Assembly: GCA_963693365.1 (NCBI GenBank)
Contig: CAVNZM010000008.1
Span: forward strand, 7,884,830 to 7,948,829
DNA from: Amoebidium appalachense
Taxonomy: Eukaryota > Protista > Ichthyosporea
Length of the DNA: 64,000 bases
Direction: 5' to 3'
In this document: positions 8,901 to 11,900 of the stretch, piece by piece
How the letters are laid out: every line of letters starts with the position of its first letter
Numbering within the stretch: the first letter of the stretch is position 1
Position numbers and translations under genes: made by a program
Notes under the pieces: generated by a model
Told to the model about the DNA's origin: nothing
Seen by the model: only the letters and a program-made list of their open reading frames with translations
Database searches by the model: none

Positions 8901-11900
8901 CGAACAGCAAGGAAGGGGAAGGGAGGGGGGTCGGATTCTTCCGGGGGATCTTCCGGGGATTCGAGCTCGAGCGAGGAGGGAGGGGGAGGGGGACAGCGGG
9001 AAGAAGAAGAAGAAAGAGCGAGGGGTGGGTTTTTTGCTGTTTTTCTCTTTCCCCCCCCCGACATCTTTACTTCCATGCAACCGGGCATGGTTGCTCTGTG
9101 TCGTGCATCTGTAAGCACATACGCGTTTGTCGCTGCACTGCATTAGTTTGCACACACATCTTCACCGTTTTGCTCACCTTGCTTGCATAAGCAACCCTGC
9201 TCGTCTTTGATCAAGACGGGTTGACCCACCCAAGTTCAGTTGATGCTGCTGTCTGAGTTGGAGCGTCGTATATACGCGGGCTAAGGGGTCGAAACTCAGA
9301 CGCAATTGATGACTTGGGCCCTCCCTGAGGATGGGCTCTGCTTATGACGCATACTGTGCGCATGGCTGATGCTGCATACTTGAATGTTTGCCTTTGCATG
9401 TGTCCTGCATCATGCTTCTCATCGTCTATGCGTACTTCGTACTGTGTTCCGCATTCAAACCCCCCCCCTATCGGTTTGGCTTTTTTCAAGCCCAAAGCAA
9501 TGGGTGATACCATATTTCCGGCTGACATCCGGGGGCATAGCTTTCCGTTCGAAGACGATAAAGTTCCGCCCTAGTAAGCGTGTTACTACCCTGCGGCGTG
9601 GGTCAAATCTCATATTTTCCCCTCTGATTACGAATTCTGTGGCCTTCGGGACTTAATTCTTTTCAGCTGGTGTAGTATGTTAGCCAGGGAAGTATCGACT
9701 TAGGTATCGACGGGGGAGCTTCCTAGAAGCCCCGTCTCCTGAGTTCCTATCTATATTTTTCTTGCTTCTGCTTACTGCTGCAACTTTAACCCCCGGCCTT
9801 TCCCACTGCCCTTGCCTGCATAAGCAACCCTGCTCGTCTCTGATCAAGACGGGTGACCTACTCATGTTCAAGTGAAACAGTATCTGAGTTGGGTTTCGTT
9901 AACGAGGGGAATAGGTCGAAACTCGGGTACTGTGGATGACGTGGGCCCCCCCTGAGGATGGGCTCTGCTTATTATGCATACTCTTTATGTATGGCTTGCA
10001 TTCTGCATCGTGTTATCCGTTTGTTCTTGTGTACTTCGTACTTTTTGACGCATTCAAAACCCCCCCCCCCCCCCCCCCCCCCCTCGTTTCTTTTCTTTTG
10101 TTTTGTTTTGTTGTCGTTTTCGCCTTGCTCTTGTTTTTTTAATTTTTACCCCTCGCTCTTCCTTGTTTCCTTTTAAATGGGGTTTCTTGCTTTGCTGCGC
10201 TGGGCTACTCATATTCTTGTCCCGTCGCTCCTCTTCCCTTCAGTTTTCTGCTGTACTTTTTTTCGCTTGTATACGTTTTCTTTCATCCATCCATCCCCCC
10301 CCCCCCCCCCCCCCCCCCCCCCCCCCCCCTCTTTCCTGCTCTCTTGTGTGTGTGTGTGTGCCTGTGTCTGTGTCTGTGCGTGTGTCTGTGCATTTTTTTT
10401 ATTATTTTTTTTTTTGTGGGGGGGGGGGGGGGGGGGGGGGAAGGGGAGGGGAGGGGGGGGGGGGGTGGTGGTGGTGGGATGGGGAGCAGAACGGCTTTTC
10501 ACTGAACGGGGCAGTTCCAGTCATATTTCTCTAACGATTGGTACAAAATCAGGCGTTCATGTATAGCGACAGCGGCGACGAATCATCCGGCTCCACCTCC
10601 GGCACCTCCTCCTCCTCCGGCTCGAGCTCGAACTCGAGCTCTTCCGATTCGAGTTCAAGCGAAAGCGAAGATGAAAATAACGACAAAACAAAAACAAAAA
10701 CAAAAACAAACAACAAACAGAAGAAGTCTCCTACGCCACCTTCGTCGCAAGCCGCGACGCCGGCGCCCGTCGTGGTTGTGGTGCCGCGAAAGGGGAAAGG
10801 AGGGAAACAGTTACCACCCCCACCCCCACCACCCGCTCCGTCCTCCACGCAATCTACGATGAACGTTCCACCCGTTTCCGCCCCTTCCGCACATGCACAA
10901 GGATCACAACACACCGCCGCGGCGGCGGCGGCGGCGGGGAATGCGAGTGCGGGTTTGAAAGAGAAGGAGAGGGAGAGGGAGAGGGATGGGCGCGCGTCTG
11001 CGGATGGGAGGAGTAGTAGAGGGGGAAAAGTCAAGGGGGAAAAGGATAGTGTACAGACAAAACCGGCGGCTTCGACGGTTTCGGCGGTTGCGGAGAAGCC
11101 GGCGGAAAAGCCGACGGAAGAGAAGAAGACGGAGGGTGTAAGGGTGAGTTGAGGGAGTGTGTTTGTGTGTGTGTGTGTGTGGGGGGGGGGGGGGGGGGGG
11201 GGGGGGGGGGGGGGGGGGGGGGGGGGGGGGGGGGGGGGGGAGATGTGGTGGTGGTGGTGGTTGGTGAGGGTATGGGTGGGTGTGGGGAAGGGGGAAAGAG
11301 GGAGCGGAAGGGGATAAGGGGGCGGGGGGGGGGGGGGGGGGGGGGAGGGGGGGAGGATGGGGAGGGAGTTTGCTGGTGTATGTGTTTGTGGATGGTGGAC
11401 AAGTAGGTCGACGTTGGTTTTGGTCTCCTGCAATCCCCCGCTTCCCCCTCCCCCCCCCCCCCCTCCCACACACACACACGCACACACAACACGTTCTCTT
11501 GTTCTCCCCCCCCCCCCCCCCCCCCCCCCCCCCCCCCCCCCCCCCCCCGGAGGATGGGCTCTGCTTCTGTTGCATACTGCGTGTGTTGGTGTTGTTGCAT
11601 ACCTGAACGCTTGCCTTTGCATGTGTCCTGCACAGTGTTTCTCGTGTAGGTGGTACCTCGTACCACGTCCCCCCCCTCCCCCCCCCCCCCCCCCCCCCCC
11701 TTCTTTACTTCCATGCAACCGGGCATGGTTGCTCTGTGTCGTGCATCTGTAAGCACATACGCGTTTTTCGCTGCATTGCATTATTTTGCACACACATCTT
11801 CACCGTTTTGCTCACCGTGCTTGCATAAGCAACCCTGCTCGTCTTTGATCAAGACGGGTTGACCCACCCAAGTTCAGTTGATGCTGCTGTCTGAGTTGGA

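Follow-up and report, generated by a model that had tools for sequence, protein, structure and literature searches.

A hammerhead-like core with a proposed upstream stem II strand in a dispersed repeat of Amoebidium appalachense

The stretch of DNA analysed here (hereafter the window) comprises 64,000 nucleotides of the ichthyosporean Amoebidium appalachense (assembly GCA_963693365.1, contig CAVNZM010000008.1, positions 7,884,830 to 7,948,829 of the forward strand). It contains many copies of a repeat that encodes a structured RNA of ~160 nt. In the copy referred to here as A, the carrier is a non-coding repeat of ~400 nt at 9060..9462 (+), found by window searches and flanked by poly-C runs, and the RNA motif occupies 9186..9346 (+). 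A member of a second subfamily, copy B, follows at 9469..10060 (+), where window searches and a four-strand descriptor place a 5'-truncated carrier with its motif at 9820-9972. A preliminary description had reported a pseudoknotted fold in both copies that it could not assign to an RNA class. The core, the descriptor matches and the pair tables of copy A suggest that the whole motif is a permuted hammerhead built from four strands. We consider it likely that this RNA holds a complete hammerhead core in the strand order S-G-C with a stem II strand supplied from upstream, that it would self-cleave after U9259, and that it is carried near the 3' end of a Penelope-like retroelement (PLE) of the Naiad/Chlamys type.

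The named stems of copies A and B sit where the preliminary description had placed them. In copy A, a closing helix (helix X) joins cataagca (9186-9193) to tgcttatg (9339-9346) by eight Watson-Crick pairs, and an inner CCC (9195-9197) is paired with 9333-9335, giving helix X a 5' strand at 9186..9197 and a 3' strand at 9333..9346. Hairpin H (9199..9221) pairs gctcgtctt (9199-9207) with aagacgggt (9213-9221), including two G-U pairs. The bridge helix pairs cccaagt (9229-9235) with acttggg (9312-9318), and the inner stem gtctgag-t (9251-9258) with a-ctcagac (9294-9301). A long-range pseudoknot is formed by gaccc (9223-9227) and gggtc (9286-9290), and a second one by ggag (9260-9263) and ctcc (9321-9324). 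In copy B, the strands 9877-9889 and 9921-9933 are paired at every position. When pair probabilities were computed by RNAfold without pseudoknots, copy A formed four long nested helices at 0.92-0.99, with hairpin H at 0.96; copy B had just two strong helices, stem III (0.98) and the closing one (0.77), with the bridge at 0.07 and the hairpin at 0.31. Whole-region folding z-scores were modest: -2.09 for A, -1.23 for B and +0.88 for a divergent copy at 6.95 kb (copy C). A small hairpin proposed earlier at 9267-9276 is weak (pair probability 0.18) and lies within a variable linker. By eye, a kink-turn candidate was noted between the bridge and stem III of copy A (GA 9242-9243, GA 9308-9309 and a bulge at 9305-9307, with a 4-nt bulge required where a kink-turn has tandem G-A/A-G pairs beside a 3-nt one); copy B has a GAA/GGA loop at this site instead.

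In an alignment of eight copies, 92% of the 337 cells are paired and both sides have changed in 10 of the 44 pairs. None of 500 shuffles matched either value, and slid controls gave 32-45% pairing with one or two doubly changed pairs. Most of the double changes are contributed by the single 6.95-kb copy, which includes compensatory changes in helix X. As the structure was read from the same related copies, and the changes come mostly from one of them, we treat this result as support and not as a test of the R-scape type. Copies A and B are 80% identical in the core versus 57% and 54% in the arms. The alignment pairing, the difference in identity between core and arms, and the recurrence of the layout in unrelated Naiad sequences (see below) all support the earlier claim of a selected fold on the sense strand.

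That this RNA is unrecognised is the part of the preliminary description that we revise. Its two pseudoknots correspond to stems I and II of a hammerhead, its inner stem to stem III, and the unpaired nucleotides between them to the hammerhead core. The long-range pseudoknot and the inner stem are borne out except for their outermost pairs, U9222-G9291 and U9259-A9293, in which G9291, U9259 and A9293 are instead the core positions G12, H17 and A14. Descriptor matches define three of the four strands as follows. Block S (9250..9263) consists of the 3' strand of stem III, the triplet GUU (9257-9259) between stems III and I, with U16.1 at 9258 and H17 at U9259, and the stem I 3' strand GGAG. Block G (9286..9302) runs from the stem II 3' strand GGGUC through GAAA (9291-9294; G12-A13-A14-A15.1), between stems II and III, to the 5' strand of stem III; A9294-U9258 is the 15.1-16.1 pair. 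Block C (9321..9332) has the stem I 5' strand CUCC, directly followed by CUGAGGA (9325-9331; C3-A9) and one extra U (9332). The 5' to 3' order is therefore S-G-C, and by analogy with known hammerheads the cut is predicted at 9259/9260. The NUH triplet GUU is kept in seven copies and is missing in copy C, and the R10.1-Y11.1 pair that closes stem II (G9223-C9290, with the G coming from the upstream strand) is invariant in all eight aligned copies.

A descriptor for the S-G-C arrangement, composed after inspection of the sequence with the core letters of the published consensus, matched seven window copies; simulation (60 windows) gave 0.12 matches per window, and two of 20,000 shuffles of copy A fitted it. 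Rfam models had no match in the whole window at the gathering threshold. A relaxed search of 9050-10070 (E up to 10) gave two matches and no more, mir-981 (E 1.1) and, on stem II-GAAA of copy B, a fragment of Hammerhead_1 (14.2 bits against a gathering score of 34, E 6.1). The canonical types I, II and III are thus not matched, either in strand order or in Rfam score, and a descriptor for hammerheads with a direct stem II, in any strand order, found none in the window. Of other ribozymes, neither HDV-like (hepatitis delta virus-like) nor twister models matched within 9050-10070, whether at the gathering threshold or with E relaxed to 10. By eye, the conserved nucleotides of HDV-like, twister, hairpin and group I RNAs are absent, and all those of the hammerhead are present. 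The RNA is a real feature that, judged from its sequence, would work like a hammerhead; it lies outside types I-III and outside type SGC as defined, and would be a new structural variant.

The difference from type SGC lies in stem II. S-G-C hammerheads cleave in vitro, and their block C is assumed to be uninterruptible (Eckert et al. 2023, PMC10085705), with the stem II strand at most 1-2 nt from A9. This is not what is found here, where the stem II 5' strand is not the strand after CUGAnGA but one far upstream (9223..9227, identified by pairing and descriptor), of which G9223 is G10.1. Direct pairing of the nucleotides after A9 with the strand preceding GAAA gives no pairs without an insertion and two pairs with one inserted base. 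The upstream strand, by comparison, forms five or six pairs in five of the six full A and B copies and in copy D, and four in the copy A11824. Its helix starts with a G-C pair beside GAAA, and in B9819 and copy C it follows the partner strand through changes from C-G to U-A. With the stem II 5' strand placed upstream, the core is opened between A9 and G10.1 by two extra helices: the tail 3' of the core pairs with the 5' end of the motif as helix X, and hairpin H lies between helix X and G10.1. Stem III is connected by the bridge helix (5' strand 9229..9235, supported by pairing and RNAfold) to stems I and II at their far ends. A descriptor with all four strands matched five copies in the window, compared with six hits in 100 simulated windows (0.06 expected per window). 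PLE hammerheads usually have one base between positions 9 and 10.1 (PMC4209133), so that an opening of the backbone at this step has precedent. In copy C (window positions 6945-6968 and 14407-14428), the strand upstream of the bridge resembles the tail of block C of other copies over ~16 nt, a hint that duplication of block C may have given rise to the upstream strand of stem II.

The same layout is present in published PLEs. We read by eye, without any program, the last ~300 nt of 53 Naiad consensus 3' ends from the supplement of Craig et al. 2021 (PMC8557442); matches to a short GAAA word in the same supplement, judged from 30 of 93 places, were mostly chance. Seven of the 53 ends (Naiad_Bfor, 3_Chem, 2_Movir, Amil, Anas, Obim and Ovul) show the four-strand layout cleanly, with upstream stem II strand, bridge and blocks S, G and C in the same order and with different stem sequences. 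Two more are imperfect (Aacu, in which stem I and stem II each have one mismatch, and Esco, whose stem II is imperfect). These examples represent five unrelated sequence types (Bfor, 3_Chem, 2_Movir, Acropora and Octopus) plus Esco. Helix X is found in all of them except 2_Movir, where it would fall outside the excerpt, and is short in 3_Chem and the octopus pair; 3_Chem has no hairpin H, and stem I of Bfor is just 2 bp. In all seven clean examples, the tail after CUGAnGA could contribute at most 2 bp of stem II. According to Craig et al. (PMC8557442), canonical hammerheads are missing from Naiads and from most Chlamys elements, and some cases are flagged as HHR_core or HHR_half_core.

Other arrangements were seen among the same Naiad ends. 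Six nematode elements (1, 2 and 3_Nbra, Hcon, Hpol and Asuum) have, by eye, clean type-CSG hammerheads with stems I-III and an extra helix; only two sequences of this type, both metagenomic, were known to Eckert et al. (PMC10085705). CUGAnGA occurs in further arrangements in several arthropod Naiads, again by eye. The 3' ends of Naiad-1_Movir and Naiad_Mley look twister-like by eye, suggesting that Naiads may swap ribozyme classes.

Compared with type-SGC ribozymes (HRIMA-1 and variants, PMC10085705), the motif shares the S-G-C order, all conserved core nucleotides, stems I and II as pseudoknots, a link from the stem I 3' strand to the stem II 3' strand, and an extra helix that holds stems I and II together. 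Unlike in these ribozymes, where block C is uninterrupted, the stem II 5' strand lies ~100 nt upstream here, and helix X and hairpin H separate A9 from G10.1. The motif is also larger (~160 versus ~80 nt) and comes from a eukaryotic genomic repeat, whereas the SGC ribozymes described in that text come from metatranscriptomes and not from genomes of known organisms. With the PLE hammerheads (Cervera and de la Pena 2014, PMC4209133) it shares a position near a retroelement 3' end or pseudo-long terminal repeat (pLTR), one nucleotide after A9, a conserved G10.1-C11.1 pair, and a long stem III like that of the fungal and protist variants. Those hammerheads are of type I (C-G-S, a circular permutation), often minimal and dimeric, whereas this one is monomeric, pseudoknotted and split. 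Naiad and Chlamys elements, which are PLEs with an N-terminal endonuclease (PMC8557442), resemble the carrier in their 5' truncation, their non-autonomous derivatives and their microsatellite targets ((C)n in Chlamys), and possibly in their partial tandems; Naiads differ in favouring (TA)n targets. Non-LTR (long terminal repeat) retrozymes (bioRxiv 10.64898/2026.07.22.740005) are likewise short, non-coding, hammerhead-bearing repeats that depend on PLEs, but they form tandem arrays with type I hammerheads, whereas the window copies are mostly dispersed, single and 5'-truncated. In the passages covered, the core insertions described by Perreault 2011 are all small, and Forgia 2023 speaks of two length variants only; the 2026 paper that cites the latter (PMC13725137) mentions variants 'containing additional helices'. 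No account of a split-block-C hammerhead, or of permuted hammerheads in Naiads, was met in the literature covered, mainly open texts without their figures. A family-specific pattern picked out nine stretches in metagenome contigs, none of them element-like by blastn, and a looser one at least 122 loci in viral contigs, none element-like by blastn among the matches listed; none of the 131 metagenome and viral matches listed fit the four-strand descriptor, in a search whose patterns would miss relatives with other stems.

The carrier repeat is present in the window as 28 related pieces with boundaries set by hand, two of them weak, which add up to 5,799 bases or ~9% of the window. The predicted cut of copy B lies at 9890/9891. 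Besides A and B, the plus strand carries the subfamily A copy A11824 (11702..12100), whose core is intact by descriptor and pair tables with one break each in stem II and the bridge. Pair tables show that the divergent copy C (6790..7180, +) has kept CUGAUGA, GAAA and helices X, H, II and bridge, with block S decayed and no U16.1, and that the B-like copy D (43128..43495, +) has a deletion in the stem I 3' strand. On the minus strand, window searches and the descriptor identified subfamily A copies with intact motifs at 53989..54434 and at 60791..61052 (the latter beginning at the helix X 5' strand), a third that is 5'-truncated inside the upstream stem II strand (61965..62185), and a subfamily B copy with an intact motif (51578..51855); the searches added a 5'-truncated subfamily B copy with a mismatch in stem III (59433..59619, -). 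The copy at 53989..54434 is preceded head-to-tail by a 95-nt 3' fragment (54440-54534). Re-insertion into the same C-run explains this arrangement (54534-53989) and a similar one at 44040-44272 as well as a partial tandem does.

The 3' end lies at a run of at least five C in 24 of the 28 pieces, against a background of 10%, and the 5' ends are variable. Such a pattern would be expected if reverse transcription into poly-C targets started at one fixed site, ~170-200 nt 3' of the predicted cut. The copies are also divided by strand, with 16 of 16 pieces at 6.8-46.6 kb on the plus strand and 12 of 12 at 51.6-62.2 kb on the minus strand. Between 12.2 and 47 kb, long C- and G-runs are equally frequent (47 each), yet the copies are distributed 9 to 0 by strand; several of these are clustered and hence non-independent. 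Copy C has a splice-donor-like AG/GTGAG close to its 5' end (6798-6806), as is seen near the 3' ends of several Chlamys elements in the supplement, and the ribozyme might lie within a pLTR intron. Upstream of the B motif, a 34-codon frame that ends in a stop (9470..9574, +) was recognised by frame reading and is possibly the end of an element open reading frame, without search support. Next to Chlamys proteins, it gives an impression of likeness to a PLE linker motif.

One further copy bears on cleavage itself. Searches and alignment show a decayed B-like copy (44153..46593, +) split at its predicted cut by a broken reverse transcriptase element of the long interspersed nuclear element (LINE) type (44273-46463, +), which has several frames and an A-tail. 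Its left flank matches B until 3 nt before the predicted cut (44 of 47 positions identical), and its right flank restarts at the first base past the cut, with a target duplication of at most 2 nt. Chance insertion of DNA at this site would have a probability of roughly 1 in 100, as estimated from the element length. This single event is one hint of cleavage in vivo.

How such an RNA might work can be outlined as follows. Stem II (9223-9227 / 9286-9290) would stack on the G12-A9 pair as in any hammerhead. From A9 the backbone would run out of the core via a single U into helix X, and it would return from hairpin H at G10.1, which would create a four-way junction. By holding stems I and II at their far ends to stem III, the bridge helix would take over from the usual contact between loops I and II. 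Folding would be co-transcriptional, and the core could close only once the last strands (block C and the tail) had been made and had paired with the first. Slow or conditional cleavage after U9259 would then free the element RNA from read-through or tandem transcripts. As most long copies span the predicted cut, uncut RNA would still be the usual template, and reverse transcription would begin ~170-200 nt downstream of the cut at poly-C targets. We lean, by a little, towards a fuller proposal: that this is an active natural hammerhead with a four-strand core, A9 and G10.1 being placed on separate strands by an extra four-way junction; that it is common to animal Naiads and to this poly-C-targeting family; that it cuts in vivo; and that the LINE at 44273-46463 represents RNA captured by template jumping between still-paired cleavage products.

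Several observations weigh against these proposals. Both descriptors were composed after the sequence had been inspected, and four of the nine motif-spanning copies (A11824, C, D and a decayed copy at 53.1 kb) fail the four-strand one. The alignments known to Eckert et al. (PMC10085705) have at most 1-2 nt inserted beside CUGAnGA. The layout is absent from 44 of the 53 Naiad ends within the ~300-nt excerpt, and it was not seen in 24 3' ends of the Chlamys file, the group that shares the poly-C target (~17 further ends stood outside this count). None of the 117 window frames of at least 75 amino acids has a Penelope reverse transcriptase or GIY-YIG domain, and the 34-amino-acid frame upstream of B retrieved four unrelated repeat proteins only, with nothing in Pfam or the ESM Atlas. 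With no Penelope domain and no informative relative of that frame, the PLE class of the carrier is taken from its architecture; by analogy, it is likely an element of the Naiad/Chlamys type. In an Anolis PLE, hammerhead mutants had no effect on insertion in vitro (PMC11167929). Finally, the tail of block C has an alternative partner in the window copies: after a 2-nt insertion, it can pair with the stem II 3' strand (GGCUC with GGGUC) in a G-U-rich helix of 4-6 bp.

This last pairing raises the possibility of a two-state switch, in which the active form would be an ordinary type-SGC ribozyme with a tail-made stem II and the upstream strands would act as a lock, off inside host pre-mRNA. The tail helix forms in all eight copies tested, beats the upstream strand in copy C (-6.3 versus -4.2 kcal/mol), is about equal to it in A11824, and occurs in copies that run sense to the host exons identified, where the off state would be favoured. 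Yet G-U pairs alternate along this helix, it is interrupted in B9819, and in six of the eight copies the upstream helix is the stronger one, by 2-5 kcal/mol. In the seven clean Naiads, as far as the supplement shows, it is impossible or at most 2 bp long and the upstream strand always pairs, which argues against a lock; we regard the switch as rather improbable. A fold derived from a hammerhead that no longer cuts, and instead gives the element's reverse transcriptase a structured handle or stabilises the RNA, is an unlikely alternative. It would agree with the long copies that mostly span the predicted cut (only one of the 28 pieces starts there), with the often low activity of PLE hammerheads (PMC4209133), with the dispensability of cleavage in vitro for the Anolis PLE, and with the lack of a tested precedent in the literature we covered for a split between A9 and G10.1. 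However, all catalytic positions and the NUH site are kept in A, B and the unrelated Naiads while the stems vary, and a mere binding scaffold would not obviously need them.

Two other explanations concern the carrier and the match itself. The ribozyme reading could be right with a carrier that is not a PLE but a passenger of a LINE, resembling a short interspersed nuclear element (SINE). The only reverse transcriptase in the window is indeed of the LINE type and sits inside a B-like copy, and 5' truncation with a fixed 3' end is compatible with LINE-driven insertion. Against this, the LINE ends in an A-tail and the repeats at poly-C, window searches found no common 3' sequence beyond the split copy, and the same RNA layout is found at the ends of curated Naiad PLEs in the supplement, so that we give such a passenger a very small chance. 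A chance match in a repeat rich in G- and C-runs would be helped by the post hoc descriptors and by the relatedness of the window copies, whose matches are non-independent. It is hardly credible given how few shuffles of the element fit even the loose descriptor and the layout shared with unrelated Naiads.

If the split core proposed here is real, the rule of three blocks behind the list of six permutations would be broken. The six published strand orders of hammerheads assume three uninterruptible blocks; splitting block C creates a further layout, one that escapes Rfam models and standard descriptors. The view of Naiad-type Penelope elements as spreading in the absence of hammerheads would also need revision, and some of the 'half-core' annotations would be accounted for. 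Eukaryotic chromosomes would then be seen to carry many copies of pseudoknotted hammerheads, lying sense near the host exons identified here, and one may ask how host pre-mRNA tolerates them. A core that closes only with two distant strands would further provide a natural scaffold for conditional ribozymes.

The host sequence around the repeats is that of an intron-rich eukaryote. Repeat copies and the host exons identified share their orientation: on the minus strand, the copies are interspersed with exons of a same-strand WD40 gene that resembles UTP4. This intron-rich gene (51300-63000, -), of which one exon best matches human UTP4 (E 8e-5), contains 12 same-strand repeat pieces, and many of its introns appear to begin with GT followed by a poly-C run. 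Other coding features in the window are a RING finger exon at 23583-23894 (+; PF00097) and a long exon at 35225-36124 (-) that repeats a coiled-coil-like unit (EREREMGE type). Of the 64,000 bases, ~13,400 are masked as simple runs (poly-C, poly-G, CA and other two-letter tracts).

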